From an uncultured virus (IMG/VR IMGVR_UViG_3300031087_000234) (Duplodnaviria; Heunggongvirae; Uroviricota; Caudoviricetes): a stretch of 64,000 nucleotides of DNA. Both the position numbers and the translations under genes were made by a program. Below the pieces are notes generated by a model, which was not told where the DNA came from, did not search any database, and was given only the letters and a program-made list of their open reading frames with translations. Position 1 is the stretch's first letter. Every line of letters starts with the position of its first letter. The stretch lies in IMG/VR virus record IMGVR_UViG_3300031087_000234, positions 1-64,000 of that record; one strand, 5' to 3'. Below, one piece after another: positions 1 to 64,000 of the stretch.

Positions 1-65
1 CTAACAGAGAGTCAAGAAGAAGTGTATAAATATTTACAGAGTGCAGAAGCGGAGGAACTAATTTA

Positions 66-1160
66 ATGGCAGCAATCAACCTTAAAAACGACAGCTACAA
101 GAGCGGCATCTATCCAGTATTCCTGGGGCAACAGTTAGGCATCTACGACAGTATCAACAAAGCCTACCCAGAGATGTTTGACCTGTACAAGAAACAGAAA
201 GCACAGGATTGGGCAGAAGATGAAGTTGACTTGGATCAGTCGCGTAAAGACTTTGCTACCTGTTCTCAGAATAACTTTGATGTTATGATCAAGACGCTCA
301 GCTTCCAGTGGGAAAACGACTCTCTGGCTAAGTCAATCATCACTCTGTTCGCTCCATTCCTGACAAATAACGAAGCCAGCGCTATGATGCTGAAACAGTC
401 TGAGGTAGAGTTGCTCCACGCCCTTACCTATTCAGAGATTGTTCGTCAGTGTGTTAAAGATCCAAACAAAGTGATTGACGAGATTGTTAAAAATGATAGT
501 ATCTTCAATCGTATGGGTATCGTCGAAGAGGTAATGTCGGAACTGGAAACAGCAGGACATAAATACGCCTTAGGTATGCTGACCGTAGAAGATGATGGTG
601 ACTACATCCGACAGCTACTGCTGGAAGGTATGGTTGCTCTGATCGCACTTGAAGGTATCCAGTTTATGTCGTCATTCTCAGCTACGTTTGCACTTGCCGA
701 GCAAGGCTTGTTCATTGGTGCTGCGAAACTCGTACAGAAAATTATGTTAGACGAGATGTTGCACGTCCGTATGGATTATGCTATTATCGATGCGTTGCTG
801 AAAGATGCAGTTTGGGCTGATGCTTATGAAAAAGCTAAACCGAGACTGAAACTTATCTTGGACACGGTTGTTGACCAAGAAAGACAGTGGGCTAAATATC
901 TGTTTAGCGAAGGTCGAGTTGTTGTTGGCTTGAATGAAGTGTTGATGATGGAATGGGTATACTACAACTGTGCTCCTATCTATCGTCGCCTGAAACTCAA
1001 GGCAGATTTCAAATCACCTAAGCAGAACCCGACTCCTTGGATGGACTTCTGGACAAACCCAGATAAAACCCAGGCTGCGGCACAAGAGATTCAGCTTACT
1101 AACTACAAACTCAATTCGATGAAGCAAGACTTCGGAGAAGATGAGGAATTTGATTTCTAA
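66..1160 (+). CDS. nrdB: Ribonucleotide reductase class Ia beta subunit
   Basis: Di-iron/tyrosyl motifs ELLHALTY, LEGIQF, DEMLH; acidic C-terminal tail; GGAGG RBS. Confidence 0.95.
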   Translation: MAAINLKNDSYKSGIYPVFLGQQLGIYDSINKAYPEMFDLYKKQKAQDWAEDEVDLDQSRKDFATCSQNNFDVMIKTLSFQWENDSLAKSIITLFAPFLTNNEASAMMLKQSEVELLHALTYSEIVRQCVKDPNKVIDEIVKNDSIFNRMGIVEEVMSELETAGHKYALGMLTVEDDGDYIRQLLLEGMVALIALEGIQFMSSFSATFALAEQGLFIGAAKLVQKIMLDEMLHVRMDYAIIDALLKDAVWADAYEKAKPRLKLILDTVVDQERQWAKYLFSEGRVVVGLNEVLMMEWVYYNCAPIYRRLKLKADFKSPKQNPTPWMDFWTNPDKTQAAAQEIQLTNYKLNSMKQDFGEDEEFDF

Positions 1161-1169
1161 GGAGTAGTA

Positions 1170-1430
1170 ATGGCAGCAGTTTATCAGAAACCTGTATACA
1201 ATGTTGTCGTAGGAGATGAGATCCTATATACCGAAGATGAGTCTGGTGAAAACCAAGTATTCAAAAAGGTTGTAGGAGAGCCGTTCACGGTTTACTCTCC
1301 AATCGATACAAAGAAGTATGGGACTCTTTGGTATGACGGAGATCTAATCTTCGAGTTGGAAGATGGAACTTATACAGGTGGAGACAGATCCACCATCATC
1401 ACAGTAAAAGACCAGACGGTTGAGGAATAA
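1170..1430 (+). CDS. Hypothetical protein
   Basis: AAGGAG RBS, operon packing. Confidence 0.75.
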   Translation: MAAVYQKPVYNVVVGDEILYTEDESGENQVFKKVVGEPFTVYSPIDTKKYGTLWYDGDLIFELEDGTYTGGDRSTIITVKDQTVEE

Positions 1431-1433
1431 TAT

Positions 1434-1652
1434 ATGCCGAACAGTATCGTAAAGTTGTCTGACATTAAGAAAGGCGATTATCTGGAAGTCCAAGAGGACT
1501 TCTTTATGACAGCCATTCAGGACGCAGAACTCTTGAGTGAAGACTTGGAGTTTCCACTTCATATTGATGCAGGGAACTATCTGGTGGTGACAGATACGCA
1601 AGCCTTCATTTACGGGCCTGCCGACTTAGAGTTTACGTTAGTAACCTCGTGA
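1434..1652 (+). CDS. Hypothetical acidic protein
   Basis: GAGG RBS, operon packing. Confidence 0.7.
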   Translation: MPNSIVKLSDIKKGDYLEVQEDFFMTAIQDAELLSEDLEFPLHIDAGNYLVVTDTQAFIYGPADLEFTLVTS

Positions 1653-1658
1653 TGCAAT

Positions 1659-1677
1659 GGGGCTTCGGCCCCTTTTT
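1659..1677 (+). terminator. Intrinsic terminator
   Basis: GGGGC-TTCG-GCCCC-TTTTT. Confidence 0.85.
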
Positions 1678-1693
1678 AGATTAAGGAGCAGGT

Positions 1694-2686
1694 ATGAGAA
1701 TTTTAATCACAGGCGGCACTGGTTTTATTGGTAGTGCTGTTGTACGACAACTATTAGAAACAACAGATCACGAGTTGGCAGTAGTAGACAAAATGAGCTA
1801 CGCTTCTGATCTAAATAACGCCCCCATCTTAGATAACCCTCGGGTGGTTTTCTATGAGTTCGATTTGGCTTCATCTTTCCGAGTTAATTCGATGATTGAA
1901 GACTTCGATCCCCACATCATTATGCATCTCGCAGCAGAGAGCCACGTTGACAACTCTATCGAAGATCCAGCACCTTTTATTTACTCTAATATCGTAGGCA
2001 CATTTAACCTACTGGAAGCAGTACGAAACCGTTCTAACTCTTTATTAAAGTTTCACCATATTTCCACTGACGAAGTATACGGTGACTTAGCTGACAGGGA
2101 AGAATGGAGTGACGGATTTAAAGAGAGCGATCCTTATTCTCCTAGCAGCCCGTATTCAGCAAGTAAGGCGTCCAGTGATCATTTAGTCCGTGCTTGGGGT
2201 CGCACCTATAAGATCCCCGTAGTAATCACAAACTGTTCCAATAACTATGGCCCGTATCAGTACCCAGAGAAACTAATCCCGAGGGTCATCACTAACGCCT
2301 TAGCCGGTAAGACTATTCCAGTATACGGAGATGGTAAGCAGATCCGTGATTGGCTATACGTGGAAGACCACGCAAAGGCTCTTATTAAAGTTGTAATGGA
2401 AGGTAAAGAAGGCGAGACATATAATATCGGTGGACTAAGCGAGAAGACCAACGTAGAAGTCCTGAGAGCCATTCTAAGCCGACTTAGTGAAAGGACAGGC
2501 AAAGACCTTAGCAACCTGATTAGACACGTTCCTGACCGTAAGGGACACGATAAACGCTATGCTATCAACTGCAACAAGATTCAGACTGAACTTGGCTGGA
2601 AACCTGAGCAATCTTTTGAAGAGGGTATCAGGAAAACAGTTGATTGGTATCTTGATAATGGGGAATGGTTGGAGGACAAACTATGA
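1694..2686 (+). CDS. rmlB: dTDP-glucose 4,6-dehydratase
   Basis: [33 protein letters not shown] motifs. Confidence 0.97.
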
Positions 2687-3564
2687 AAGGAATTGTTCTG
2701 GCAGGCGGGAGTGGAACCCGCCTCCATCCTGTCACGAAGGGAGTGAGTAAACAGCTTCTTCCTGTGTACGACAAACCAATGATCTACTATCCATTATCAG
2801 TCTTGATGCTGGCAGGTATTCGTGAAGTCTTAGTTATCACCACACCTAAGGATCAATCTGCATTCGAGGATGTTCTGGGAGACGGTAGCGATTGGGGATT
2901 AAGTATCTCCTATGCAATTCAAAGTGAACCTAATGGGCTTGCAGAGGCTTTCATTATTGGGGAAGAATTCATTGATGGAGATGATGTTGCTCTTGTTTTA
3001 GGTGATAATCTTTTCTTCGGTGAAGGCTTTAGCGGAAAGTTAAGGAAAGCAAGGGAACAAGTAGAACATAAAGGTGGTGCGGTAATATTCGGTTACGAAG
3101 TTAAAGATCCTCAGCGTTTCGGTGTCGTAGGCTTCAACAGAAACAAAGTAACTAGTATTGAAGAAAAACCAGACGAACCTAAGTCCAACTGTGCAGTCAC
3201 AGGATTATACTTCTACGATTATACGGTAGTTGATCGTGCAAAGGAAGTTCGACCTTCTGACCGAGGAGAATTGGAAATCACTGATATTAATAACTCATAT
3301 CTTCAAGATGAAGTATTAGATGTGGAGATTTTAGGACGTGGGTTTGCTTGGTTAGATACAGGAACTCACGAGAGTTTACTTGAAGCCGCAGGGTATGTTA
3401 GAACTCTACAACGACAGCAAGGGACTTATATCGCTTGTCTGGAAGAAATTGCATATAAAAACGGATGGATTAGTCGTGACCAACTATTAGCTAAAGGGCA
3501 GCAAATGGCTAAGGTTGAATACGGAACTTACATTCTTAAACTTTTTGGGGAGACATTGAGATGA
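2683..3564 (+). CDS. rmlA: Glucose-1-phosphate thymidylyltransferase
   Basis: [36 protein letters not shown] 2683 overlaps the rmlB stop (ATGA) with GGAGG RBS. Confidence 0.97.
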
Positions 3565-4112
3565 AAGTAAAGAGTTTTGATATCGAGGGATTGAAACTTT
3601 TCCGTCCTAAAATCTTTGGAGATGAGCGTGGATACTTCTACGAATCATTTAATCAAGCCGAGTATGATGAACATATCGGGTATGAGGTGTTCGTACAGGA
3701 CAACGTATCTAAATCGAAAAAAGGTGTACTGCGGGGTATGCATTTTCAGAACATCAATCCTCAGGGTAAACTTGTTCGTGTTATGTCAGGTAGTGTATAT
3801 GATGTAGCTGTGGATGTGCGGAAAGGATCGCCCACGTTTGGGCAATGGGAAGGTGTTTTCCTTAGCGATCTGAATAAAGATATCTTCTGGATTCCACCTG
3901 GCTTTGCTCACGGCTTCGTTGTTATGAGTGAAGAGGCAATCTTTGAATATAAATGCACACAGTTCTATCATCCAGCATCAGAAGTAAGTTTAGCGTGGGA
4001 TGATCCTGATGTTAATATTGATTGGGGCTTTGACCTTATGGGCAAGAATTTTAAAGTCACTCTTTCCGAAAAAGACAGTAACGCTAAATCACTCAAGGAG
4101 ATCTTTGGATGA
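3561..4112 (+). CDS. rmlC: dTDP-4-dehydrorhamnose 3,5-epimerase
   Basis: [21 protein letters not shown] cupin motifs. Confidence 0.97.
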
Positions 4113-4933
4113 AGTATTTAGTCTTCGGTGGATATGGGCAGCTAGGTTCTGCCCTAGCTTATTACAAACCCTCTGATGTTCAGGTTATCCAGTTGGATAG
4201 CGGAGTAGATATTACCGACTACTTCAAGGTGAAGGATATTATCGATGAAGTACTGCCGGACGTTGTTATTAACTGCGCAGCATACACCAATGTTAATGGA
4301 GCAGAAGAAAACCAAGATAAAGCATTTGCTATTAACGCGCTTGGCCCTTCGATCCTAACTAAACTGTGTTCTGATAGATGTATTCGCTTTATTCATATTT
4401 CATCTGACTATGTTTTCGATGGAAAGAAGAATGCACCATACAATTCTTGGGATGATACTAACCCTCTCAATGTATACGGTGTAACCAAGGAAGCAGGTGA
4501 GATCTTTGCCTCAGGTCATAAGTGGTATAGTCCTCTCGTGATCCGCACCTCTTGGGTGTATAGTGAGTTCGGGAATAACTTCGCTAAAACAATCCTGAAC
4601 AGGGTTGCTTCGGGAGTCACCGAGTTTAATGTAGTGGACGACCAGTTGGGAACACCTACGTATGCGGGTCATATTGCAGAAGCTATCTTTAAGTACTACG
4701 CAACTGGTGATCTTTCCCTGGAGACAGGTATTATTCACTTCTCAGGCGATAAAGTTTTAAGTTGGTATGACTTCACAAAGTTATTGACAGAAGGCTATGA
4801 TTCTGTTATAGTCTCTCCAACGAAAACAGTCTCAGACGTAGTGAGGCCAGCATATTCTGCACTGGCTTCATCCTTCGGTATTTCCAGTAACACGGAAGAA
4901 GGTATTCTGAGAACTAAGGAAAAGGTTTTATAG
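4109..4933 (+). CDS. rmlD: dTDP-4-dehydrorhamnose reductase
   Basis: GxxGQLG, NCAAYTNV, SSDYVFDG, YGVTK, DDQLGTPT. Confidence 0.95.
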   Translation: MKYLVFGGYGQLGSALAYYKPSDVQVIQLDSGVDITDYFKVKDIIDEVLPDVVINCAAYTNVNGAEENQDKAFAINALGPSILTKLCSDRCIRFIHISSDYVFDGKKNAPYNSWDDTNPLNVYGVTKEAGEIFASGHKWYSPLVIRTSWVYSEFGNNFAKTILNRVASGVTEFNVVDDQLGTPTYAGHIAEAIFKYYATGDLSLETGIIHFSGDKVLSWYDFTKLLTEGYDSVIVSPTKTVSDVVRPAYSALASSFGISSNTEEGILRTKEKVL

Positions 4934-4941
4934 GAGAAAAG

Positions 4942-5196
4942 ATGGTATTCACTATTTATGGCAAACCAAATTGCCCATATTGCACTCGTGCAAAAGACAC
5001 ACTGATTTCCAAGGGTATTCACTTCGTATACCTGACTTTGGATGAAGATTTCACAGTGCCAGAACTTATCGAACTGGTTATTGAGAAAACGGGAGTCCGT
5101 CCCTCTACATTCCCTCAGATTTTCGTAAGAGATGAAGAGGAAACGGATACAATGCACGTAGGAGGTTTTACTGAACTGGTAAACTTCCTTAAATAA
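4942..5196 (+). CDS. Glutaredoxin
   Basis: CPYC active site, TFPQIF, VGGF. Confidence 0.93.
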   Translation: MVFTIYGKPNCPYCTRAKDTLISKGIHFVYLTLDEDFTVPELIELVIEKTGVRPSTFPQIFVRDEEETDTMHVGGFTELVNFLK

Positions 5197-5207
5197 AAGG
5201 AAAATGA

Positions 5208-5708
5208 ATGTCTAACGTATCAGACGTTTTCGGTATGCTTAAGCTGGACGAAGGTTTGAAGCTGAAAGTATATAAAGACACTGAGGGCTACTGGACTGTG
5301 GGGATTGGTCATCTTTTAACTAAGAAGCCTTCTCTTGATGTAGCAATCAGTGTTCTGGATTCTCAAGTAGGTAGAAAAACCCAAGGGTCTATCACCGAAG
5401 ATGAAGCCCGAAAAGTGTTTCAGTCCGATGTTAGCGCTGCTATCAAAGCTATTCAGGCTGACGCTACACTAAACCCAATCTATAAGAAATACGATGGAGT
5501 AAGGCAACAAGCTCTGATCAATATGGTATTTCAGATGGGTGCAGCAGGTACTGCTTCTTTCCATAACAGTTTAAATCTGGTTGCTAATAAAAATTATGCA
5601 CTGGCTGGAACTAATATGCGACAAAGTAAGTGGTATCGTCAGACGCCTAATAGAGCAGAACGTGTTATTAAGGTGTTAACAACAGGCACATTTGATGCCT
5701 ACAACTAA
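5208..5708 (+). CDS. T4-type lysozyme/endolysin (GH24)
   Basis: E-x8-D-x5-T triad (DEGLKLKVYKDTEGYWT), ALINMVFQMG, SKWYRQTPNRA as in T4 lysozyme. Confidence 0.93.
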   Translation: MSNVSDVFGMLKLDEGLKLKVYKDTEGYWTVGIGHLLTKKPSLDVAISVLDSQVGRKTQGSITEDEARKVFQSDVSAAIKAIQADATLNPIYKKYDGVRQQALINMVFQMGAAGTASFHNSLNLVANKNYALAGTNMRQSKWYRQTPNRAERVIKVLTTGTFDAYN

Positions 5709-5711
5709 TTA

Positions 5712-5729
5712 AGGGGCTAGCGCCCCTTT
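5712..5729 (+). terminator. Probable terminator hairpin
   Basis: AGGGGC-TAGC-GCCCCT followed by a short T run. Confidence 0.55.
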
Positions 5730-5740
5730 CAGGAGCAGTA

Positions 5741-6475
5741 ATGGGAAAGAGTAGCCGTAAGTCTAGTAAATCTTTTGATACCTCCGCACCTCGCAGTAAA
5801 TATCAAGAGAAGAATCCAGAAGCCACGACAGATTATAAGCTGGGGAACTTTGTTCCTACAGAAAAGCAGAATCAGATTGTTCAAAGTATGCAGTGGAACG
5901 ATTTAACTGTTGTAAACGGTAAAGCTGGAACAGGCAAGACCTCTACCGCACTATGGGCAGCAATCAATAAACTAAAGCAAGGCGACACACGGAGAATTAT
6001 CTTCCTGAAAAACCCTGCCGAAGTTGGTGACGACCAGATTGGATTCCTTTCGGGAGACAAGAAGGATAAACTTGCAGCCCACTATGCTTCAACAAAAAGA
6101 ATCTTCCACAGCTTTATGTCTCCAGGTAAACTGGAAACAGATATTGCTAACGGTAAGATTGAACTGGAAGTTCCAAACTATGCGCTGGGCGCAACTTGGG
6201 ATCACTCCATTGTAATTATTGACGAGAGCCAGCTTATGTCTCCACAAACCATTAAACTCCTGCTGGAGCGTACTGGAGAGGATACGAAGGTGGTGCTGAT
6301 TGGTGATGTTAGTCAAACCTACGCAGTCAAGAACCGTAAAAATGGTCTGGCTGATTTTGTAAGTAGAGTAACCGAAGATGGAGTTCCAAAGGAAGACTTT
6401 ATCGGGTATATTACCCTGGACTCTGAGGACAACCAGCGTTCACGTCTATCTCAGTACGTCACAGAACTTTATTAA
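5741..6475 (+). CDS. phoH: PhoH-family ATPase
   Basis: GKAGTGKT, IGFLSGD, IIDESQ, IGDVSQ. Confidence 0.9.
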   Translation: MGKSSRKSSKSFDTSAPRSKYQEKNPEATTDYKLGNFVPTEKQNQIVQSMQWNDLTVVNGKAGTGKTSTALWAAINKLKQGDTRRIIFLKNPAEVGDDQIGFLSGDKKDKLAAHYASTKRIFHSFMSPGKLETDIANGKIELEVPNYALGATWDHSIVIIDESQLMSPQTIKLLLERTGEDTKVVLIGDVSQTYAVKNRKNGLADFVSRVTEDGVPKEDFIGYITLDSEDNQRSRLSQYVTELY

Positions 6476-6514
6476 TACTTATGGGCAGGGATGCCCTATC
6501 TAAAAGGAGAGCAT

Positions 6515-6991: not shown

Positions 6992-7000
6992 GGAGGAATA

Positions 7001-7739: not shown

Positions 7740-7747
7740 GGAGTGCT

Positions 7748-8173
7748 ATGTTAATCACAAAAACTGAGGTGGAGGAGAAGTTATTCTCCTTCGAACAGAC
7801 GGTTAAGCTAAGCCGCAATCTTAAGCAGGCTATGGCAAGTAAAATGTATTGGGTGCCTGGCAAAGGTATTTTCGGAGGCTTCTACGACAACTATACAAAC
7901 GTTTTCGGTGAGGCTTTATTGAATAATCCTAAAAAGACAGAGATCCTAGATACTCTTCTTGCAATGGAGAAGATTTCCGTGGTAAACTATAATTTGATGG
8001 ACTTCCACGATCAAACGATGCAAGGTAAGGATATGTTCGAAGCTCTACTGGCTAAGTTTGGTGACAAGGAATCCATTGACATTGATGAAAGATGTGTTAC
8101 TCTCATTAGATTCCTCGGTGACTTCAATGAAGAAACCTATGAAGGTAAGGGTGTAGAATGCCCGCAGCTTTAA
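7748..8173 (+). CDS. Hypothetical protein
   Basis: AGGAG RBS, operon packing. Confidence 0.75.
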   Translation: MLITKTEVEEKLFSFEQTVKLSRNLKQAMASKMYWVPGKGIFGGFYDNYTNVFGEALLNNPKKTEILDTLLAMEKISVVNYNLMDFHDQTMQGKDMFEALLAKFGDKESIDIDERCVTLIRFLGDFNEETYEGKGVECPQL

Positions 8174-8679
8174 AGAAGAAATCCGAAAGGAATGTTAATG
8201 ATTATTATCCCACTCCTGAATCGGCTATTCAGCCGCTCTTAGAAGTTATTGGATATAAGGATATTGTAACGGATTGGAGATTTGCAGAACCGTGTCGTGG
8301 AGAAGCAAAGGCAATCTACAGGTACTTACCCTTCGGGAGTGAGTATTGTGAGCTATCGGAAGGAAAAGATTATCTACTGTCGCAATGGAATGAAAGACCA
8401 GACTGTATAATCACTAACCCTCCATTTTCAATAGCTATGGAATTCTTGGAGAAGAGTATTGGAGAGGCAGATGTTTGCATTTATCTCCTGAGACTCGGCT
8501 TCTTAGAATCTGTGAGACGTAAAGAGTTCCATCAGAAATATCCGGTGGATCATTTGATCGTCCTCAGCAAACGTCCATCCTTCTCAGGAGACGGAAAAAC
8601 AGATGGCACAGCTTACGCTTGGTTTGTCTACGATCCGAAGAAAAGATTAGGATTGGAAAAATCGATATATGTCGTATAA
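8158..8679 (+). CDS. DNA amino-methyltransferase (probably N6-adenine)
   Basis: DYYPTP, EPCRGE (motif I-like), ITNPPF (motif IV). Confidence 0.85.
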   Translation: MPAALKKKSERNVNDYYPTPESAIQPLLEVIGYKDIVTDWRFAEPCRGEAKAIYRYLPFGSEYCELSEGKDYLLSQWNERPDCIITNPPFSIAMEFLEKSIGEADVCIYLLRLGFLESVRRKEFHQKYPVDHLIVLSKRPSFSGDGKTDGTAYAWFVYDPKKRLGLEKSIYVV

Positions 8680-16642: not shown

Positions 16643-17308
16643 CTAGCTGTTCTCCAAAAACACAGCCCGAGCAAAGCCACGAGGAGTAAGAGATCTTAGC
16701 TGTTTAGTACGAGCAGACTTACCTCCCAAGTACTTCCATCCCCAGAAGAATCCGCAGTGGTCTACAGGCTTTTTAGCAGGCATCTTGAAGCCATTGCCAG
16801 CCCAGATACACGTTTTCTTGGTGTATCCATCACATACAGGCATCTTAGGATGAAAACTACCTTCTTCTGGACTCAGATAGCCACCATACTCATAAGGATG
16901 GAAGTAGTAGTCAGGTTTACGCCATTCTGTTGATAATTTCCCAACAGGATTCTCCAGATACCAAGGACAATCGTATAGATCGCCCAAATAAGGAATCAAA
17001 TCTACGTTACTTCTCGCCAACTGCATCTCTTGCTCTGTCCTGACGTGCTGATCTCCAGATTGAGCAAAGAAAGTACAATCAGGATATGCAAACATAATAT
17101 CTGGTACAGGTAAACCCATTTCCACACGTTTTTCATCGAAAGATTTGTCAATCCAGAGATTAACGTAGTGAAGGTTAGGGTGCTGCATCTTAACGAAGTA
17201 TTCTCCGTGGTTCCCCTCGTCTGCATTGAAGCAATAGACAGTGTGACCTGCCTTTGCATAATCATACCCTGCAATTCCACTACCATCGAACAGGGAGAAT
17301 ACAATCAT
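16643..17308 (-). CDS. Short phage-type DNA cytosine-C5 methyltransferase
   Basis: SLFDGSG (motif I), PDC catalytic Cys, LENP, RSLTPRGF. Confidence 0.8.
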   Translation of the reverse strand: MIVFSLFDGSGIAGYDYAKAGHTVYCFNADEGNHGEYFVKMQHPNLHYVNLWIDKSFDEKRVEMGLPVPDIMFAYPDCTFFAQSGDQHVRTEQEMQLARSNVDLIPYLGDLYDCPWYLENPVGKLSTEWRKPDYYFHPYEYGGYLSPEEGSFHPKMPVCDGYTKKTCIWAGNGFKMPAKKPVDHCGFFWGWKYLGGKSARTKQLRSLTPRGFARAVFLENS

Positions 17309-21842: not shown

Positions 21843-22424
21843 TTATAAACTTAATGAGAAATCTTCGGACAAGTCATCACTCATTTCCTGAGTAAAGCCG
21901 ATATAGTAGAGCGTTGCAGCCGGAGAAGTCTGACCTAATAGTTTAGTGATCCTTTCGATAGGTACACCGTTCTCAAACAGAATTCTTCCTTTGCTCTTGC
22001 GTGGAGTATGAGTTCCCACTTCTAGTAAACCGCTTCTACGTCCTGCTTTGCCATAAGCTTCCAGTACTGGATTATGACTAATAGGAGCGCCCTTGGATCT
22101 CTTATCGGATAATGAGAATACATATTCTCCGAACATCTCTCGTCCAGAAGCCTCTTCAAGACGCTCTGAAACAATCTGACGCATCGTGTCTGTAATCAAC
22201 ACCTTCAAGTTCTTGCCTGTCTTTTGTTGCTTAAGGTGGACGTGTGTTGCTGATAAGGAAAAGTCACTCCACTTCAAAGACACAGCATCGGAGAATCGCA
22301 AGGCTGTTTCGTACTGCATAACCCACAAACCGTAGAACAGATTGGTTGCACGATTATCCTTGAGGATCTTCGCTACCTTCTTAACATCTGTTATAGATTT
22401 GAGTGACGCTACAGCTTTACCCAT
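21843..22424 (-). CDS. Tyrosine recombinase/integrase (catalytic domain only)
   Basis: ALRFSD, KTGK, HTPRK, LLGQ, YYI. Confidence 0.85.
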   Translation of the reverse strand: MGKAVASLKSITDVKKVAKILKDNRATNLFYGLWVMQYETALRFSDAVSLKWSDFSLSATHVHLKQQKTGKNLKVLITDTMRQIVSERLEEASGREMFGEYVFSLSDKRSKGAPISHNPVLEAYGKAGRRSGLLEVGTHTPRKSKGRILFENGVPIERITKLLGQTSPAATLYYIGFTQEMSDDLSEDFSLSL

Positions 22425-38159: not shown

Positions 38160-38492
38160 TTATTCTGTTTCTTCTTCTCCGAAATCTGATTCACACCATA
38201 CTAAATCATTTGAGTTCTGAATGTCAATGTAAAGTTGTTCGTAGATGCGAGCCTGCAAAATCCGCGTAACATCTTTTGTCTCAGGAATCAATCCGCTGTC
38301 TTCGAATTCGTGATCAATACCTTCTGACGCCATTACCTCAAAAATTTCTTTGTAGTAATGGGGAACATAATGATCCGCCACTTCGTGCAATGCATCGCTT
38401 GAATCGCTTACAATCGTTAAGTTATCGCACTGGATACGCTCGTTAAAAGCGACGATTGCATTTGCCAGGATTTCAGTGTAAGTGGTAGTCAT
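38160..38492 (-). CDS. ocr: Ocr (T7 gp0.3-like) DNA-mimic anti-restriction protein
   Basis: VPHYYKEIFEVMASEGIDHEFEDSGLIPETKDVTRILQARIYEQL, near-identical to the T7 Ocr core as recalled; AAGGA RBS before ATG 38492. Confidence 0.92.
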   Translation of the reverse strand: MTTTYTEILANAIVAFNERIQCDNLTIVSDSSDALHEVADHYVPHYYKEIFEVMASEGIDHEFEDSGLIPETKDVTRILQARIYEQLYIDIQNSNDLVWCESDFGEEETE

Positions 38493-38576
38493 TTTCTTGT
38501 CCTTGGTTGCTTTGTTAGTGTGAGAGTATTCTATCAAGGGCTATTATTATTTGCAAAAGCCCTTTGTAAAATAATC

Positions 38577-44101: not shown

Positions 44102-46417
44102 TCATCGTCTTATTAAACGCTCTACCTCTTCTAGCACTTTACGCTGTCTGGCATAGAGATCAGAGGCGACAGTAGTGGCGTGTGGCCCGTAGGTTGCTCG
44201 TTCAACATAAGGACGACTACCAAGAATAACATCTCGAATCTCTTCGAAAAGGTTAATCATCTTCTGCTCAGCAGGATTGATACGTTCTTTTTTGTAGTTG
44301 GCCTTAAAATCTGCAATGATTTTATCATCCTCTGCAATAGCTGCTTTGATCCCACTGACAGCCTTAGAGAATACAGAAGGAGGCATACTCCGCGTTAATC
44401 CTCTGTTACCTTTCAATGAATGAAGAGAGTCAATTTTTGTTTGACGGATCTTGTTCATTGCTTTTAGTGCGGTAACATACGATGTTTTTCTAATTGTTGT
44501 ACTCATTCTCCCTCCTTGTTTGCTAAATATGCTTCAAAAGCATCTATAAACGTTCGTTTATGCCCCTCGCCATTATAACGAGTACCTTTCTCTAAGATAT
44601 GCTTGACGGTTTCTACATTTGTCTCTGTAGGGTTCCACTGACCTTCCAAGCCGTAGCAAGAGCAATGGTAGCCTTCCACTTCATAGAGAACGCCATCCAA
44701 TTCGTACAAAACATAAGCTTCGCCCTCGTAACATTCGTAAGTATACCAGGCAATAATGATCTTTGCTCGATAAAGATCTGATAGCTCCTGATCTGACAGT
44801 TCAAACTCACGACCAACATCTGCCACACAATTAAAATCATCTAAAAACATTAGTTACCTCCACGAGCTAAGCTGGCTGCATATTGAATAAGATAAACCTT
44901 AGGCGCAACCCAAATCTGGAGAGCATCTAAGCTGTTGGCTATGATGATCCAAGCACTAATTGCAAACAACAATACGGTTCCAATATGTGCAGGAATATTC
45001 TCAGCATCCTTTTTCACCCATTTATTAACGAGGCGACACCACCAAATACCCAGGATAGCCAGTACAACACCCACAACAATCCAGAGAACAGAAGATGTAA
45101 GTTGCCATAAAAGTAGCTGATGAATGACCTCTGGGATTTGCTGCTTACCAAATTCAATAACATCACTCATACTTTTAACTGTAACGTCAATCATACTGAG
45201 CAGTACGTCAGATGCCTTGTCTTTCAGTTGTTCTGTAGTTGCCATTGTTCCTCCTTAGAAAGATTTGAGTATGATTCTTTTTCTACACACAGGGCAATCA
45301 ATATAGTGGTCTGTTCCGGTACACTGACTGATATCTTTGTATGTAACAGTCTGAATATCGGTGAAAACGTATGCTAATACGCTACCGCACTGTCTGCAAG
45401 TACATTGCATTTCTTTTTGTTGTTCTACTACTTTGATAGTCATTAGATCACATCTCCTTTTTCTTTGCGATATTTATAAAGGCTGATTGTACCTAAGATT
45501 GCCGGAATATACAAGACGGGCCAGAGAATCGTGCTTGGAATAATCATCCAAGGACTATTCACATAACTTGCCCCCAGACAATCTACATAGTATATCATTG
45601 TTGCTGCAACGAAACCAACGCTAAGCCACCAAAGAAGAAAGAGCATCATACGAAACCACCGTACAATGTAGCAAATCGTGCTGGATGGTTTTTAGGGAGT
45701 TTCAAGGCTTCCTGAACTTCTGGTTTGTCCATAAACAGTGATGCTCGTTTTTCCAACTCAGAGAAATCTTGAACGTGGAACACCTCCACTTGACGCATTG
45801 TAGTTTCCATAGGGACGTTCTGCAACTCTGGACGACCTTTTAGACGCATTGTGCGACTCTTGCCTGTCAGAGAGTTATGCAGAGTGATCTCTTCTGGGAA
45901 ATCTTCCGGCTTCGCCTTTTCAATACCGATAACTCGATCAGCACTACGGTATAACTCACCTGGAGTAAGACGTGACTTACCTTCTGGCGTAGAGGCAGTC
46001 AGGACAACTAAGGTATCTTTTTTGTGACCATTCATTATTGAGTCTCCATTAATCTGAGTTAAAAGGGTATTTATTACTTGCTTAGGGAAGATTCTAACCT
46101 CAGCCGGAGCAGAGGTCAACATAATTTCTTCCTGTTTCCAGTTAAAACTCGACGAAACCTTTTTCATCTGCCATATCCTCTAAAGTCACTTCATCCAATG
46201 TTTTAAGAATGACAAGGCCACGCTTAATGCCTGGAACAATCTTATCAAAATATTCCTGAAACAAATCCTCTGCTGCGATCTTATGATCAGTGATTACAAC
46301 AATACGCTTCTCTGCAACGTAAGATTTCCAAACCTTGCCACACTTCCAGATGAAGTCTGCACGATCTGCACTCACCATACCCTTCTTACGTTGACGCTTT
46401 GTGATTGGTTCCAACAT
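44102..46417 (-). other. Array of hypothetical genes (44102-44506, 44503-44850, 44850-45245 membrane, 45255-45443 Zn ribbon, 45443-45649 membrane, 45646-46167, 46142-46417)
   Basis: Translational coupling, RBSs. Confidence 0.7.
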
Positions 46418-56925: not shown

Positions 56926-56927
56926 CT

Positions 56928-57269: not shown

Positions 57270-57278
57270 GGAGAAAAT

Positions 57279-57638: not shown

Positions 57639-57776
57639 TGACTAAACAAGAATTGGTATTAGCTAAGGCTTATATTAAGATTCTGAACAAGTCTAAGGCC
57701 GCAAATGACAACGAGGGTGGCGATTATCAACGCGCCGCTACTCGTCGCTGGTGTTAATTTAGAGTAAGGGGAAAGT

Positions 57777-58103
57777 ATGAAATATTTATCTGAATCAGTT
57801 TTATCTAAAATGGATGTTAAACGCCTTGGCGCATTACGTCGATCTGTTCTTGCACATATTAACCGTTGCGAGAAAGATGGTGTGTGGTGTTGTGAGAACA
57901 AGTGCCAGTGGGTAGAGGATAAATACCATACTTATCCCAACAAGAACGCTGATTATGCGTATCGGGATCTGGTCAACAAGTATTATGATGCTCAAGTTGA
58001 TTCTCTGGTTGCTCTTGTAGAACTGTCTAAGGAAGATATCCGGCAAGGTCGTAGTATGCCTGCCTCTGAAGCCTTAGCACGTATGAGGGCTAGACGAGGC
58101 TAA
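57777..58103 (+). CDS. Hypothetical protein
   Basis: 108 aa ORF with RBS. Confidence 0.65.
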   Translation: MKYLSESVLSKMDVKRLGALRRSVLAHINRCEKDGVWCCENKCQWVEDKYHTYPNKNADYAYRDLVNKYYDAQVDSLVALVELSKEDIRQGRSMPASEALARMRARRG

Positions 58104-58130
58104 GCATTTTCTTAATACGATAATCAGCCA

Positions 58131-58159
58131 TTGACTAAATCCTATGATTGGGGTATAAT
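58131..58159 (+). promoter_or_regulatory. Near-consensus sigma70 promoter
   Basis: TTGACT-17-TATAAT. Confidence 0.8.
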
Positions 58160-58208
58160 GAAGGAATACCCCTTTAATGGGATCTTACCTTATATAAGGA
58201 ATATCTTA

Positions 58209-60023
58209 ATGGTAATTTTCGGACAACCCTATGGTAGTGGTGGAGGCGGCACTGTAACCCCGCCAGACGTTAGCGATCAAATTGCTGCGTACATTGCTGC
58301 ACATCCTTTTTATCGTACATTCAAGTCTTGGGCAGAACTTAAAGCTGCTAAACCAACGGCTACGGGTGAACGAGTCTTTCTTTCTTCTTATAATGCAGTA
58401 TCTGACGGTAGTTTCCACGGTAGCGGTTGGTTTACTGGTAACTTAGCTGGTAAGATTGCAGATGATGGTGGTGTTCACGCTGCCGATAGCGGTAAAACTT
58501 ATTTCTGGCTACGTGAGAAAGAATATGACAAATTAGACGTTACCGACTTCGGTGCTATGCCGGGTGGAACTGTTGATGCTCAACCTGCTATCCAGCGAAT
58601 GAATACCTTTGCAAATACATACCTGTCTACCCTCGGAATCCGTTTCCCTGCTGGTAGCTTCCTTGTATCTGGATGGGATTACTCTGCGACATATGTATCT
58701 AAGTTCAAAATGGCTGGCCCAGATGTAGAACTAGGTTATATGGCACTAACAACTCTGATCCTTGATGGTAGCGCAGACTACGCATTTAAAGTTCAGGCTC
58801 GTTACACAGAGATTACTGGTATCTTGGTATATGGACAGTACGATAAGAAAGTCAACACAATGGGCTTCTTCCGTAACATCTGTTCTGCTGGTCAGTACGC
58901 TCGTATCAAGTGTGTTCGCTTCTCCTATATGGGTGGTAAGAGCCTTAGCTTGATCGATACACTAGACACGAAGATTGATCAGTTCTACAGTAGCAATACG
59001 TATGATAGCGTCCTGGACGTGACTTACGACAATGCCACAGTAGGAAGCTGGGATCACTCGACGGCACTAGAACTGAGCAACTTCAACCTGCAACACGGTT
59101 TTGGTACAAACGCTTCGATCTATGCGCCTCGTGCTACTCAGTGTTTCATCTACAACGGATGGATCGAGCACACCGAACACGCCGGAGACCTTTCTAACGG
59201 ACAGTGGTTGATTGACGGACTCGACCTTGAGAACATTGATACTCCATTTGACCTGACTTACTGCCGTGCATCAATGCGTGGTATCAACCTAATCAACGCC
59301 AGTTTCAACAGAACTAACACAACTGTTAGTCAGTGGGCTTCTGGATATGACCAAGGAAACCGTCAGGACGAGGCTTTTGGTAGCGTTATCAACGGTACAA
59401 TGAAAGCTAAATGGTATACTGGTGCTCTACGTGGAACTAACAATGCCAATGCAAACATTTGGTTGAACCTTGGTAGCTTCTATACACCGAACAACGGTGG
59501 TATCTGGGAGATTGAAATCATCTCTCGTCTGAGCTACAACTCAGTAGGTAGCGCAAACTATCCAGTACAATCAGACAGATCTCCTGGTAAGACTATTATC
59601 AACATCCAACGTGGTGCGGGTAACATTCCTATCGTGACTATGTATCACTTCGGTGCTACAGGTGTTACTGCGGCTCAATACGCAAACCAGCAGTATAACG
59701 AAACACTACCTGCTCTCTGGGTACAGTTTGGGCCTTATACTGGTGAATACGTCATTAACGTTAAGAGCACGTCTCCTACACGTTTTGATCAAGGTCAGTG
59801 TGCGCTGTTCACTGTAAGTGGTGCTACACAGTCTGCTTCTCCTGGTTTAAACGCTGTCGTTCCGCGTATGTCTTTACATAACGGTAGCGCTGGTGTAGGT
59901 GCTCAGGGCAACTTACTGGCGGTTAGTACTGCAACAGGTACACCAACAACCCCAGGCACAGCTTCAACACATATGCAGGTAGTTGTGAACGGTACTCCGT
60001 ACTTTGTTCCTCTGTTCCTGTAA
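58209..60023 (+). CDS. AmsF/WceF-like tailspike-fold exopolysaccharide-modifying enzyme/depolymerase
   Basis: DFGA...DAQPAIQ...FPAG beta-helix start; LSLIDTLDTKIDQ, WDHSTALELSNFN, NGWIEH, GDLSNGQW, SLHNGxAGVGA match Erwinia AmsF/Pantoea WceF as recalled; TAAGGA RBS before ATG 58209. Confidence 0.8.
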   Translation: MVIFGQPYGSGGGGTVTPPDVSDQIAAYIAAHPFYRTFKSWAELKAAKPTATGERVFLSSYNAVSDGSFHGSGWFTGNLAGKIADDGGVHAADSGKTYFWLREKEYDKLDVTDFGAMPGGTVDAQPAIQRMNTFANTYLSTLGIRFPAGSFLVSGWDYSATYVSKFKMAGPDVELGYMALTTLILDGSADYAFKVQARYTEITGILVYGQYDKKVNTMGFFRNICSAGQYARIKCVRFSYMGGKSLSLIDTLDTKIDQFYSSNTYDSVLDVTYDNATVGSWDHSTALELSNFNLQHGFGTNASIYAPRATQCFIYNGWIEHTEHAGDLSNGQWLIDGLDLENIDTPFDLTYCRASMRGINLINASFNRTNTTVSQWASGYDQGNRQDEAFGSVINGTMKAKWYTGALRGTNNANANIWLNLGSFYTPNNGGIWEIEIISRLSYNSVGSANYPVQSDRSPGKTIINIQRGAGNIPIVTMYHFGATGVTAAQYANQQYNETLPALWVQFGPYTGEYVINVKSTSPTRFDQGQCALFTVSGATQSASPGLNAVVPRMSLHNGSAGVGAQGNLLAVSTATGTPTTPGTASTHMQVVVNGTPYFVPLFL

Positions 60024-60030
60024 TTGATAT

Positions 60031-60062
60031 AATCCCCTTCTCTTCGGAGTTGGGGATTTTTT
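60031..60062 (+). terminator. Intrinsic terminator
   Basis: AATCCCC...GGGGATT-TTTT. Confidence 0.8.
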
Positions 60063-60118
60063 ATTGACACAGCTTCCAAGCTAGTATAGTATGACCACAA
60101 ATATTGACAGGAGGAAAA

Positions 60119-61132
60119 ATGAAAACAATCGCTAAGGTTTTATTCGGAAGTAAACTTTATGGCACAGATACACCAGAATCAGATACGGATTATAAAGAGA
60201 TCTTTGTTCCAGACGCAGAGAGCATCCTGCTAGGAACAGTAAAGAATCATATGAGTTACAACACAAGTAGCGACGATGTGAAAAATACGGCTGAGGACGT
60301 GGATTACGAAAGTTTCAGTCTGCGTTACTTCATTAACTTAGGCATCGAAGGCGAAACCTTAGCTCTTGATATGATCCACGCACCAGCTAACCGAGTGGTA
60401 CACTCAGATCTTCCGGCAGTATGGGCAGAACTCCAAGCTAACCGTTCGCACTTCTATTCTACGGATATGAAATCCTACCTAGGTTATGTGCGTAAGCAAG
60501 CTGGTAAGTATGGCGTTAAAGGTAGTCGTATGGCTTGTCTTCGTCAGGTTATGGAGGCATTAGCAGCAGCGCCTTCTCATTCACCAGACCCTAAACACGA
60601 GGGTAAGCGCCTGCGTAAAACCCGTGTTGGTGATATTGCACATACACTACCTCTGAACGAATTCTGTGAGTGGACTGTTGATGAAAACCAACGTTCAGGC
60701 TTCCAGGATTTCTATGTTGTCTTGGCACGTAAGTTCCAGACCAGTGTATCTGTGGAAGAAATGCAGAACTCTTTACAGAAGACGTGGGACGACTACGGAC
60801 ACAGGGCGCGTCAGGCAGAACTGAATGAAGGTATCGACTTCAAAGCACTCAGTCACGCTCTGCGCGGTGGTTTGCAGTTGAAAGAGATTTACTCGACGGG
60901 TGATCTGGTGTATCCTCTTAAGGATCGAGAGTACCTGATCAAAGTTAAAGCCGGAGAGATCCCCTTCAAAGAGATTCAGGTTGCTCTTGAGGATATTGTT
61001 AGTGAAGTAGAAAAGCTATCAGTGCAAGCCAAAAAGAATGGTATGCAGGAAAAGGCTGATCCTACTTTCTGGGACAAGTTCATCCGTGAAGTGTATTTGG
61101 ACGAGATTCTCAGTGTGTACGGCCCAAAATAA
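60119..61132 (+). CDS. Nucleotidyltransferase (T4 NrdC.11/RlaP-like)
   Basis: FGSKLYGTDTPESDTDY, KALSHALR; promoter TTGACA-17-TAGTAT at 60064-60092. Confidence 0.8.
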   Translation: MKTIAKVLFGSKLYGTDTPESDTDYKEIFVPDAESILLGTVKNHMSYNTSSDDVKNTAEDVDYESFSLRYFINLGIEGETLALDMIHAPANRVVHSDLPAVWAELQANRSHFYSTDMKSYLGYVRKQAGKYGVKGSRMACLRQVMEALAAAPSHSPDPKHEGKRLRKTRVGDIAHTLPLNEFCEWTVDENQRSGFQDFYVVLARKFQTSVSVEEMQNSLQKTWDDYGHRARQAELNEGIDFKALSHALRGGLQLKEIYSTGDLVYPLKDREYLIKVKAGEIPFKEIQVALEDIVSEVEKLSVQAKKNGMQEKADPTFWDKFIREVYLDEILSVYGPK

Positions 61133-61205
61133 AGGTTGCATCTGGTAATCATACTATGATAACATCAGCTTTCTGGTGTTATCTTTTTAGAGTAATGGAG
61201 GAACA

Positions 61206-62783
61206 ATGGAATTTACACCTACGGCACAACAAGTAGCTTGCTTGGAGTCCTTTAAGTTAAACCGATTCACAACAATTCAAGCCCGCGCCGGTACAGGTAA
61301 GACTTCTACGCTTAAACTGCTGGCTAGTACTACTTCGGATAGCATTCTGTATTTGGCTTTTAATAAAACAATGGCAGAAGAAGCTAAGAAGAAAATGCCG
61401 TATAACGTCCAGTGTCGTACACTCCACTCTGTGTGCTACCAAGAACTTCCAGCGTCTATGCGTCATAAACTTACTCGTCCAGAGGGCAAGTATGTTAACG
61501 TTGCAGGTACAGGCAGCGAGATTGCTAAGTACTTCAAGATCAAACCTTGGGCTGATAAACGTGGCAAAGTATTAATCACAGAAGCTATGCTTGGACTGCT
61601 GGTAAAACAGACCCTGGCTAAGTATGAGTTCTCTGATGCAGAACATATCACCCGAGATCATTTCCCTGGCACATTAGTTGAAGATTTTAAGAAGAAGGGT
61701 GTAAACATCCCTCAACTGGTCACAGACACAATCCGTTATGCTAAACAGCTATGGCGTGAGCGTACTGATACTAAGTCTCCGGTTATGATGACTCACGATA
61801 CATACGTGAAACTCTATCAGCTTTCTGGTAAAGACCTGGGTTACGACATTATCTTTGGTGATGAGTTCCAGGATGTTAACTCAGCCTTCTTGTCCATTCT
61901 GAAAAATGCCGTAAGTGCTAAACGTATCGTGGTAGTTGGTGACGAATACCAGAGTATCTATCAGTTCCGAGGAAGCGTGAATATGATGACGGAGACTGCT
62001 ACAATGGGCGCTGAGCTTCACTTATCTGCCTCCTTCCGCTTCGGGCCTAAGGTAGGTAAACTAGCAGAGGACGTATTAAAAGTTACTGCACAGGGTGACG
62101 TAGAAGTCGAAGGTCGTGGTTTTGATACCGAAGTAGGTAGTGGACATAGCTCTTTTGTGGATACAAATAAGCCATACACTATTATCTTCCGCAAGAATAT
62201 GACAATGCTCTTAGCAGCGATGGATTTGATTGCAGATGGTATTGAAATTAATATGCACGTTGATACCCGAGACTTTGTTTCTATGGTAGATAGTGTAAAT
62301 GCCCTTCGCCGTGGTGAAACAAACAAGGTTAAGCACGAAAGCATCCTACCATATGCAAGCTGGGAAGAATTTGTTGAGGGTGCAGAGTCAGACCCTGACG
62401 CTAAGCGGCTGCTAAACATCATCGTTTCCGGTAAAGCAGGTATGATTGCACAGACTTTGCGTAACTATCGTCCGTCCAAGAATGCTAAAGTGACCCTGGT
62501 AACAGGTCATAAGTGCAAAGGACTGGAGTTTGACCAAGTTATTCTCGGCGCAGACTTCCCTTCTAACTACAACAAAGAAGGTCAGTGGGTAGGTTTAGAA
62601 GACGCAGAGCGTAATTTACTGTATGTAGCTGTTACTCGTGCCATTAAAGTGCTACAGTGGAACGAAACAGTCCAAGAAATCCTCGATATGCAACGCGAAG
62701 TGATGCGTGAGGATACAAACGCAGAGTTTAACCACTTGATCAAGAATCAAGTTAACTCATTAATGAATGATGTGGAGGTATAA
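61206..62783 (+). CDS. UvrD/Rep-like superfamily 1 helicase
   Basis: ARAGTGKT, DEFQD, GDEYQSIYQFRG, SFRFG, HKCKGLEFD, LYVAVTRA. Confidence 0.92.
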   Translation: MEFTPTAQQVACLESFKLNRFTTIQARAGTGKTSTLKLLASTTSDSILYLAFNKTMAEEAKKKMPYNVQCRTLHSVCYQELPASMRHKLTRPEGKYVNVAGTGSEIAKYFKIKPWADKRGKVLITEAMLGLLVKQTLAKYEFSDAEHITRDHFPGTLVEDFKKKGVNIPQLVTDTIRYAKQLWRERTDTKSPVMMTHDTYVKLYQLSGKDLGYDIIFGDEFQDVNSAFLSILKNAVSAKRIVVVGDEYQSIYQFRGSVNMMTETATMGAELHLSASFRFGPKVGKLAEDVLKVTAQGDVEVEGRGFDTEVGSGHSSFVDTNKPYTIIFRKNMTMLLAAMDLIADGIEINMHVDTRDFVSMVDSVNALRRGETNKVKHESILPYASWEEFVEGAESDPDAKRLLNIIVSGKAGMIAQTLRNYRPSKNAKVTLVTGHKCKGLEFDQVILGADFPSNYNKEGQWVGLEDAERNLLYVAVTRAIKVLQWNETVQEILDMQREVMREDTNAEFNHLIKNQVNSLMNDVEV

Positions 62784-63041
62784 TTGTACATTTCAACAGG
62801 TAAATATGAAGTCCGAGAGATTTATCTTCCTGCTGTAGCCTTTCAATTGCTTGTAAAGGCAGCAAGTGAGAACATTCAATGGACTGCATCACAGACGCAG
62901 GAACCTGAACCCGAACATTTGAAGGGTAAACGCACCCTTACCCTGTATGGTGTAAGGTATATTGAGGAGGTGGTGGCACCTTCTATGTTCGATAAATATA
63001 CTGGCAGACCTAATATGGTTTATCCAGTAGGAGCACGATAA
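62784..63041 (+). CDS. Hypothetical protein
   Basis: GGAGG RBS, TTG start. Confidence 0.6.
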   Translation: MYISTGKYEVREIYLPAVAFQLLVKAASENIQWTASQTQEPEPEHLKGKRTLTLYGVRYIEEVVAPSMFDKYTGRPNMVYPVGAR

Positions 63042-63252
63042 TGGATAAGAGCGCACTTATTGCTTGGGCAGAGAAAGAACTTCACGATCCCCACACCCAA
63101 GAAGCTATTCAGAAAGCTGTTAACTGGTTATCTGAGAAAGGCTTCACTTGGGCAGAACACGAGGTTGAAAAGATCCTCGCTTCATTGAAAAAGAAAGATT
63201 GACGTTATCTAAGGAGTGTCGTAAGATGCTCCTAACTTAACGAGGAGGGACT

Positions 63253-63705
63253 ATGAGCTATATTGGAAAATGCTATACGGTTTTAAACGACGATGAAGAA
63301 ACTATTGCACAATGGCCTGAGATTAAGACAGGCTTTGCGTTTCAGATCCTAAAGGTAGAAAATCGTGATGGCCTATATCCAGGCGTGACTCGCCTCCGCT
63401 GCCTGTCAACGGATAAGATTTTTGACGTTGAATATCCTCTTCACGATGGCGGCGAATCTTGGTTCTGGTGTCTCGTTGCATTAGATGAAGCAGGAGAACT
63501 ATCGCTTAAGCCCCTGAAAGAGCGACCATTAAAAGAGGAACCTCTGGGGAAAGTCCATATGGGACACTTCCAAGGGCGGGAAGTAGATATTGCTTATGCA
63601 TTGTCTGCATTAGCCGCTCAGGAAGGCTGTGACGGGGAAGAATATGACCTGATGGAAAAAGCATCCCGCTATATTCGTTATCTGGAAACACAAATTAACG
63701 CTTGA
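63253..63705 (+). CDS. Hypothetical protein
   Basis: GAGGAGG RBS; promoter TTGACG-17-TAAGAT at 63199-63227. Confidence 0.75.
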   Translation: MSYIGKCYTVLNDDEETIAQWPEIKTGFAFQILKVENRDGLYPGVTRLRCLSTDKIFDVEYPLHDGGESWFWCLVALDEAGELSLKPLKERPLKEEPLGKVHMGHFQGREVDIAYALSALAAQEGCDGEEYDLMEKASRYIRYLETQINA

Positions 63706-63754
63706 CTTGTTAAACCATAACAGGCAAGATTAACAAAAATAAAGAGGAGATCAT

Positions 63755-64000
63755 ATGAAAGACACAGTAAGCATTATCAAAGCAGATCGTATTTGTGCGC
63801 GTTTTGACAAAGACCACGCACGTTTCGCAACACTGACAAACCTGTTAGGTGCATTTGACCTGGCTAAGTCCAATAAAGCAAACCTGGCTAAGACGGATAA
63901 CGATATTCTTCTGCCCGTCCTCAAGGCTGCTCTAAGCGATGCTAAGGGTGCAGCAGAAACCTACCGTAAACTTGATGACGCTAAGCGCCGAGAGGCATCA
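63755..64000 (+). CDS. Partial CDS running off the window, possibly YqeY-like
   Basis: GAGGAG RBS; IKAD...AR..KD....L..LLG helical pattern. Confidence 0.5.
   Translation, partial: MKDTVSIIKADRICARFDKDHARFATLTNLLGAFDLAKSNKANLAKTDNDILLPVLKAALSDAKGAAETYRKLDDAKRREAS

Follow-up and report, generated by a model that had tools for sequence, protein, structure and literature searches.

The window analysed here is the whole stretch of 64,000 nucleotides that forms positions 1 to 64,000 of the IMG/VR virus record IMGVR_UViG_3300031087_000234, an uncultured member of the Caudoviricetes. It carries an Ocr-like anti-restriction gene and two putative DNA methyltransferase genes and, over its entire length (1..64000), lacks the tetranucleotide CATG. 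As this word is its own reverse complement, the exact count of 0 matches holds for both strands, against an expectation of 251 copies (standard deviation 15.7, largest value 297) from 100 dinucleotide-preserving shuffles; a second-order Markov model predicts 196 and base composition 237. The initial annotation had described an apparent complete avoidance of CATG where 200 or more copies would be expected by chance. The expectation agrees with the 196-251 copies given by these three models, and the avoidance proved stronger than claimed, since it extends to the rest of the contig, to its complementary contig and to a relative.

Indeed, the contig that begins with the window (G000) is 76,973 bp long and has 0 copies of CATG against 240.4 expected; in this comparison of k-mer counts with a Markov expectation the word lies far below its expected frequency (z = -19.4). 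No other 4-mer comes near this degree of depletion, and the six that follow it in the ranking are, like CATG, palindromes. The complementary contig G002 contains 0 copies against 242.8 expected, and the relative G001 (141,261 bp, 81% nucleotide identity, fetched in full) 0 against 409.3. The approximately 11.5 kb of G000 that are non-coding by open reading frame (ORF) call are also free of the word. Four other recognition words that had been reported as present are indeed found in G000, namely GATC (380 copies, 448 expected), CCWGG (116, 129 expected), GGCC (61, 124 expected) and GAATTC (15, 11.6 expected). The trimers that overlap the word, CAT and ATG included, all occur often, and CATT, AATG and TATG show a 1.3-1.4-fold excess.

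The anti-restriction genes named in the initial annotation were examined individually. The Ocr-like gene, predicted to encode a DNA mimic, lies on the minus strand (38160..38534) and is well supported by Pfam PF08684 (ocr, E 9.8e-32) and PHROG 2568 ("ocr-like anti-restriction", E 1.4e-42). Ocr acts on Type I and bacteriophage exclusion (BREX)-type systems and is not known to protect against Type II enzymes. The two methyltransferases are plausible though weakly supported assignments resting on PHROG labels, look-alikes and one weak PADLOC match, with no Pfam or NCBIfam match above threshold and no confirmation from PDB sequences. The first, P0001 (173 residues, 8158..8676, plus strand), is putatively of the N6-adenine type: it matches PHROG 799 ("DNA methyltransferase", E 5e-57) and the PADLOC model MTase_II (E 0.005), the Pfam families Dam and EcoRI_methylase reach E 0.1-0.15, below the cut-off, and its feature-based look-alikes are named S-adenosylmethionine (SAM)-dependent methyltransferase. 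Its translation contains an NPPF motif, which we take to be that of a methyltransferase. The second, P0002 (220 residues, 16643..17305, minus strand), is putatively of the C5-cytosine type: it matches PHROG 757 ("DNA methyltransferase", E 3e-76), its feature-based look-alikes bear the name DNA cytosine methyltransferase, one of their clusters carrying PF00145 on 21% of its members, and searches against Pfam, NCBIfam, PADLOC and PDB sequences gave no match. FxGxG-, PDC- and ENP-like motifs are visible in its translation and are presumably those of such an enzyme.

The distribution of the trait was established by protein-guided searches of viral contigs, using as marker genes those of the ribonucleotide reductase small subunit (66..1157, plus strand, Pfam PF00268), which has 20 related loci at 43-100% identity, and of a UvrD-type helicase (61206..62780, plus strand, Pfam UvrD-helicase), which is 100, 100, 90 and 90% identical to its counterparts in the viral contigs L002-L005. 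A total of 39 loci were examined. Marker identity reaches 85% or more in 17 of them, and every one of these is free of CATG, except L005, which has a single copy, for a per-locus expectation of 22-57; the 17 loci correspond to 13 distinct contigs whose names bear seven different data-set numbers. All 22 loci with at most 84% marker identity show observed/expected (O/E) ratios of 0.55-1.06. The CATG-free clade is composed of two sub-lineages, one of which includes the window and the other G001, a contig estimated by CheckV to be 96% complete. Its nearest outgroup, the sister contig G003 (58,036 bp, ribonucleotide reductase small subunit 84% identical), has 158 CATG against 206.7 expected, and phage phAPEC8 (Phapecoctavirus, Stephanstirmvirinae) has 175 against 204 in its first 50 kb and 279 in 83 kb. 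The loss of CATG is therefore confined to one lineage of phAPEC8-like myoviruses. phAPEC8 is the closest named relative of the window's phage, with 66-69% amino-acid identity for the helicase and 73% for the ribonucleotide reductase large subunit, and the compared regions are syntenic for the ribonucleotide reductase, rml-like, lysozyme, PhoH, HslV-like and Sir2 genes. It also lacks CTGCAG, TCCGGA and GGATCC; it differs in its normal CATG and CTGAAG content and in its host, Escherichia coli. Membership of the window's phage in the phAPEC8-like Stephanstirmvirinae is thus indicated by shared core genes and synteny in the compared regions.

The way in which the word is avoided was analysed from codon contexts in the 157 ORF-called genes of G000, which cover 66 kb. 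Histidine before a codon starting with G is always written CAC (116 CAC, 0 CAT), whereas elsewhere CAT (201) is more frequent than CAC (126). In the same way, none of the 106 four-fold NCN codons preceding TGN ends in A, against 1,434 of 4,050 in other contexts, and none of the 552 codons preceding an internal methionine ends in C, against 4,323 of 21,377 elsewhere. Likewise, none of the 126 ATG start codons is preceded by C. The earlier statements that His-G is written CAC-G and that ATG never follows C are thus exact. These contexts are ordinary in 50 kb of phAPEC8, which has 76 CAT and 34 CAC before G, 20 NCA before TGN and 54 NNC before methionine. At the 56 CATG sites of the sister lineage that could be aligned, the clade shows CACG (18), TATG (8), CTTG (6), CCTG (2) or another or gapped word (22), and these replacement words are the expected single-base silent escapes. 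A synonymous change suffices to avoid any CATG, and the loss is indeed made entirely through synonymous codon choice. Since the recoding is synonymous, leaves the proteins untouched and is accompanied by site-free non-coding DNA, the target of selection is the DNA rather than the protein.

This selection is still at work. The window and the loci L004 and L005 are about 81% identical, with approximately 3,800 differences over approximately 19,700 aligned bases, and we simulated neutral divergence in 500 runs, each of which distributed substitutions matching the real ones in number and kind over random positions. The simulated sequences acquire 46 ± 6.5 new CATG (minimum 27-29), against 0 and 1 in the real ones; CATG is therefore kept out by ongoing purifying selection and not by one historical event. 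The single CATG seen in the clade (L005:2603) is non-synonymous, with GAG-CAT-GGT (His) where L004 reads GAG-CCT-GGT (Pro), and may be natural variation that is tolerated, or else an error in sequencing. Among natural variants from four public runs, none of the 40 listed (440 more exist) creates a CATG, for a chance expectation of only about 0.7.

These data bear directly on two trivial explanations. If CATG had been deleted or miscalled during sequencing, assembly or data handling, the error would have had to respect reading frames, which are intact, and produce synonymous replacements in 13 separately fetched contigs from seven data-set numbers; this combination leads us to reject such an artefact. 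In addition, the region is covered by contigs from the four further public runs, each piece showing 0-74 differences, and relatives from the same collection show normal CATG, so that the probability left to an artefact is negligible. A cause unrelated to defence, such as a mutational bias, a codon or dinucleotide preference or the reservation of CATG as a phage signal, could invoke the fact that palindromes in general are somewhat depleted (AATT 0.58, TATA 0.62, GGCC 0.49), which is nothing specific to CATG. Composition is already absorbed by the Markov and dinucleotide-shuffle expectations, the overlapping trimers are common and the neighbouring words CATT, AATG and TATG enriched, and a reserved signal would leave some copies whereas none is present. 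Above all, the sister lineage matches the clade in gene content and gene order wherever the two were compared and has near-normal CATG, which brings such a cause close to being refuted and leaves it very improbable.

The loss of CATG is part of a wider purge. We tested recognition words of Type II enzymes, and 31 of these words have zero copies in G000. They include GGWCC (36.5 expected), GRGCYC (18.9), CTGCAG (18.9), GGATCC (13.4), CCAN6TGG (13.0), CAGCTG (12.7), TCCGGA (12.0), GGTNACC (11.6), CACGTG (10.7) and GTGCAC (9.8), and three others are nearly gone, namely GACATC (1 of 26 expected), CTGAAG (3 of 50) and GACN5GTC (1 of 13). The phage genome is thus restriction-site-poor in general and not only CATG-free. 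Part of this state is older than the clade, as the sister G003 already lacks GGWCC, CTGCAG, CAGCTG and GTGCAC. G003 is nevertheless normal for CTGAAG (26/28 and 23/24), GACATC (13/13 and 12/12.5) and CACGTG (8/8.3), of which the clade has 0-3 copies. It follows from this contrast that at least four unrelated words (CATG, CTGAAG, GACATC and CACGTG) were purged along the stem of the CATG-free clade, where the guanine plus cytosine (GC) content also rises from 39% to 43%. Such a combination would be expected if the phage had moved to hosts whose restriction repertoire was different, and not if it had gained one new gene.

Two of these words are not palindromes. GACATC/GATGTC is almost absent (1 of 26 expected in G000, 1 of 56 in G001), and CTGAAG is avoided likewise. 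Contigs of the phAPEC8-like kind and several Pantoea and Erwinia phages lack GACATC too (loci L001, L014-L017, L058 and L060-L062), and phAPEC8 avoids it as well, but it is normal in G003. No enzyme with such a site is known to us; CTGAAG is a Type IIG site.

A rival possibility is that the phage itself, or a partner element, deploys a CATG nuclease of an unrecognised family that shreds host or rival DNA, the site-free genome then being a form of self-protection. If true, this would be a case of restriction without modification in a large enterobacterial-type phage. An absolute zero in approximately 147 kb and again in 141 kb would fit a lethal self-cut, and room for such a gene exists, as many early genes have no known function and 76 of the 157 ORFs of G000 have a homolog only in G001 among the sequences compared. 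This list of clade-limited genes is too long to be useful because the sister genome G003 is incomplete. However, the ICEA/NlaIII family (PF05315) is absent from G000, G001, G002 and G003 (0 of 4 at E <= 1), and so is PvuII (PF09225, 0 of 4 at E <= 1), the latter being a weak test as the model matched in no control genome. Among 48 proteins, no PADLOC restriction-enzyme model was found beyond a weak AAA-type match, and Pfam, NCBIfam and PADLOC scans of the larger proteins of no assigned function gave no nuclease. Moreover, a single nuclease does not account for the simultaneous purge of three further, unrelated words along this stem, and the natural variant L005 carries one CATG. Taken together, these results give a phage-borne nuclease no positive support, and we regard it as unlikely.

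An HNH gene and a gene cassette of the phages were considered and rejected as components of a CATG system. The HNH gene, the only one, also occurs in the CATG-bearing sister and in phAPEC8. A three-gene insert specific to the G001 sub-lineage lies between the HNH and thymidine kinase genes (L027:1631-4115) and encodes a 186-residue ORF, a 337-residue ORF of no known family and a D12-class N6-adenine DNA methyltransferase (PF02086, E 1e-17); it may be a mobile restriction-modification-like or orphan-methylase cassette. This D12 methylase cassette is absent from the window's sub-lineage and present (40-64% identity) in the CATG-normal distant relatives L037 and L043, and so does not follow the trait.

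The remaining genes define the phage and its surroundings. G000 encodes the ribonucleotide reductase, four dTDP-sugar (rml-like) genes, lysozyme, PhoH, an HslV-like peptidase, Sir2, a T4 gp30.8-like protein, PinA, the UvrD-type helicase and many small early ORFs, a gene set indicative of a large virulent-type myovirus of the phAPEC8 group. G002 (83,492 bp) carries the structural and replication half of the genome and overlaps the two ends of G000 (7,640 bp at 100% and 5,353 bp at 99.98%), from which we infer a whole phage genome of approximately 147.5 kb, the window being about half of it. A scan of the window for transfer RNA genes found none, and a near-identity DNA search of a phage collection with the window gave no match. 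Regarding lifestyle, the relatives are virulent-type myoviruses and a search of 185,579 species genomes revealed no prophage copy, yet a 192-residue integrase-family ORF is present (21843-22421, minus strand, PF00589, E 3e-20). A second, short integrase-family ORF of 114 residues lies at 44503-44847 (minus strand, PHROG 21421). These integrase-type ORFs thus sit in a phage group regarded as virulent, and the homologous region of phAPEC8 is annotated as a putative site-specific recombinase.

The window also encodes a 630-residue tailspike of the exopolysaccharide (EPS)-depolymerase type (58131..60020, plus strand; PHROG 4250, EPS depolymerase, E 2e-154). It is 93.7% identical between the two sub-lineages, against about 81% for the aligned DNA overall. 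Just 3' of its gene (60031-60065), a hairpin terminator (AATCCCC...GGGGATT followed by a T-run) was recognised by eye, and an inverted-repeat search at this place gave no match at the seed used. The contigs of all four runs break or diverge at the same positions, which suggests a module boundary.

Several clues point to the host. By tblastn, the window tailspike matches 122 phage records (102 Erwinia, 16 Pantoea, 3 Xanthomonas and 1 Salmonella) at 30-37% identity, and a second tailspike of 856 residues, in G001, is also of the EPS-depolymerase type and has its best matches in Erwinia and Pantoea phages (up to 47% identity). The phage DNA was found in 20 runs listed, belonging to 15 studies and mostly to phyllosphere or silage metagenomes, two of these runs being possible sources. 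Many of the 5-6-mers missing here are missing from Erwinia and Pantoea phages as well: phiEaP8 and pEp_SNUABM_01 lack GGWCC, CTGCAG, TCCGGA, CAGCTG, CACGTG, GTGCAC and CTGAAG, and LIMElight lacks CTGAAG and GACATC. Tailspike kinship, habitats and shared missing words together make an Erwinia/Pantoea-like leaf epiphyte the likely host.

The initial annotation had attributed the avoidance to a host defence that targets CATG, for example an NlaIII-like system, and that has exerted strong selection over a long time. The selection is borne out by the palindromic word, its silent removal, the purifying selection, the approximately 30 other missing Type II sites and the precedent of CATG-poor phages, while the agent is inferred and is most likely a restriction enzyme. 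We consider that restriction-site avoidance against a CATG-specific orthodox Type II enzyme of the host is the best reading, with a probability of roughly three in four. A 4-bp palindrome is the typical target of such enzymes. According to this reading, a lineage living in leaf-surface and silage communities would have silently removed every CATG, replacing CAT with CAC where G follows, NNC with NNT where ATG follows and NCA with other NCN codons where TG follows, and new CATG sites would be continually removed by selection. The agent would be an enzyme with a specificity like that of NlaIII, FatI or CviAII, common in the phage's hosts. As DNA with no CATG site cannot be cut by a CATG enzyme, incoming unmethylated phage DNA would be resistant whatever its methylation state. 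The loss of CATG would then form one layer of a broader protection, together with the elimination of some 30 other Type II sites and with Ocr for Type I-like systems, and the two small putative methyltransferases may cover some of the remaining sites.

This picture is close to the one described by Rusinov et al. 2018 (PMC6286503), whose available sections report that avoidance is mainly directed against orthodox Type II sites in non-temperate double-stranded DNA phages, and not against Type I, IIG or III sites, and that complete or almost complete site elimination occurs in about one tenth of viral genomes. The likeness lies in the elimination of a short palindrome, in a virulent-type double-stranded DNA phage and in the joint loss of many Type II sites. 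Here, the purge differs in that it includes the non-palindromic words CTGAAG and GACATC on both strands, whereas that study, as far as its available sections go, saw no avoidance of Type IIG sites.

The same restriction to orthodox Type II enzymes (PMC6286503, available sections), like the palindromic nature of the word, speaks against a non-classical reader of CATG, whether the Dpd 7-deazaguanine system (the other candidate put forward in the initial annotation), a base-excision restriction enzyme or a nuclease that a prophage, a plasmid or a satellite encodes. The sequence data are compatible with any nuclease that reads CATG, and the one context linked to Dpd modification, CAGCTG (PMC10164549), is absent here (0 of 12.7 expected). 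The main text of the Dpd paper, in the portion available, mentions CATG 0 times, and the only sequence context to which it links the modification lies within CAGCTG, the PvuII site (PMC10164549), so that the proposal of Dpd as agent receives no support from it. As a whole, non-classical readers appear improbable, although slightly less so than a phage-borne nuclease.

As regards orthodox Type II avoidance, precedents for CATG itself exist. The accessible supplement tables of Rusinov et al. list 42 phage-CATG pairs, of which four have O/E below 0.1 (PMC6286503), namely CP21 (6/235), CP220 (14/207), CPt10 (21/213) and RAP44 (7/80), names that we derived from the taxids in these tables. These three Campylobacter phages (Firehammervirus) and the Riemerella phage RAP44 resemble the window's phage in the word concerned and in its near-total depletion, and their host species are listed with CATG systems. 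They differ in keeping 6-21 sites, against 0 of approximately 440 and 0 of 409 in the window's lineage, and in their hosts, Campylobacter and Riemerella, whereas the window's phage belongs to an enterobacterial phage group. In the HF1-group haloviruses, as described in the available part of PMC7230728, GATC and CTAG are wholly absent and many 6-bp palindromes are absent, while CATG is only reduced to 0.24-0.44; here too a 4-bp palindrome is gone from a whole viral genome, but the word is another. Closer to the likely host group, 27-kb stretches of Pantoea phage LIMElight (L060) and Erwinia phage Zoomie (L061) have 0 GATC against 110 and 111 expected, a similarly complete purge of a 4-mer; the word is again different, and CATG is near normal in both (111/131 and 110/136). 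Finally, the presumed specificity of the selecting enzyme is that of the NlaIII, IceA1-HpyI and CviAII systems, with the difference that no member of their ICEA family (PF05315) occurs in the window's phage or its relatives.

Several observations nevertheless weigh against a host Type II enzyme as the selecting agent. No CATG-specific enzyme and no host of the window's phage came to light, which also distinguishes this case from the pattern of Rusinov et al., and the 25 species with CATG Type II systems listed in the accessible tables of that study include no Enterobacterales (PMC6286503). None of the 12 sampled Erwinia and Pantoea phages avoids CATG (O/E 0.72-1.0), and no close copy was found in 185,579 bacterial species genomes, the only match being a 30%-identical helicase in an unrelated metagenome-assembled genome. 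L041, a viral contig of 146,850 bp with a ribonucleotide reductase 52% identical, keeps both CATG (62/73) and GACATC. Lastly, within the literature searched, which does not cover all print, we found no reports on CATG methylation in Pantoea, Erwinia or Enterobacteriaceae, and a search on CATG avoidance in phages, within the same bounds, returned nothing or irrelevant records. L041 shares a data-set number with L003, L028 and L030 and lacks GGWCC, CTGAAG, CTGCAG, TCCGGA and CAGCTG as the clade does; co-occurring phages thus differ in which words are purged.

The phenomenon and the word were both already known, and no new principle is revealed. What is new is the completeness of the loss (0 of more than 400, twice), the phage group in which it occurs and the fact that no enzyme with this specificity is catalogued in the likely host group. 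With a word expected more than 400 times and absent from two genomes that are 81% identical, this lineage is among the cleanest natural cases of complete restriction-site elimination, and the sister lineage that keeps CATG provides a built-in control. The list of missing words reads as a record of the restriction enzymes used by the phage's hosts. Orthodox Type II avoidance, if correct, would lead one to expect that Erwinia/Pantoea-like bacteria of leaf surfaces possess a CATG-specific enzyme not yet catalogued, as well as activities directed against CTGAAG, GACATC and CACGTG, and would be relevant to the choice or engineering of phages for the biocontrol of plant-associated bacteria.

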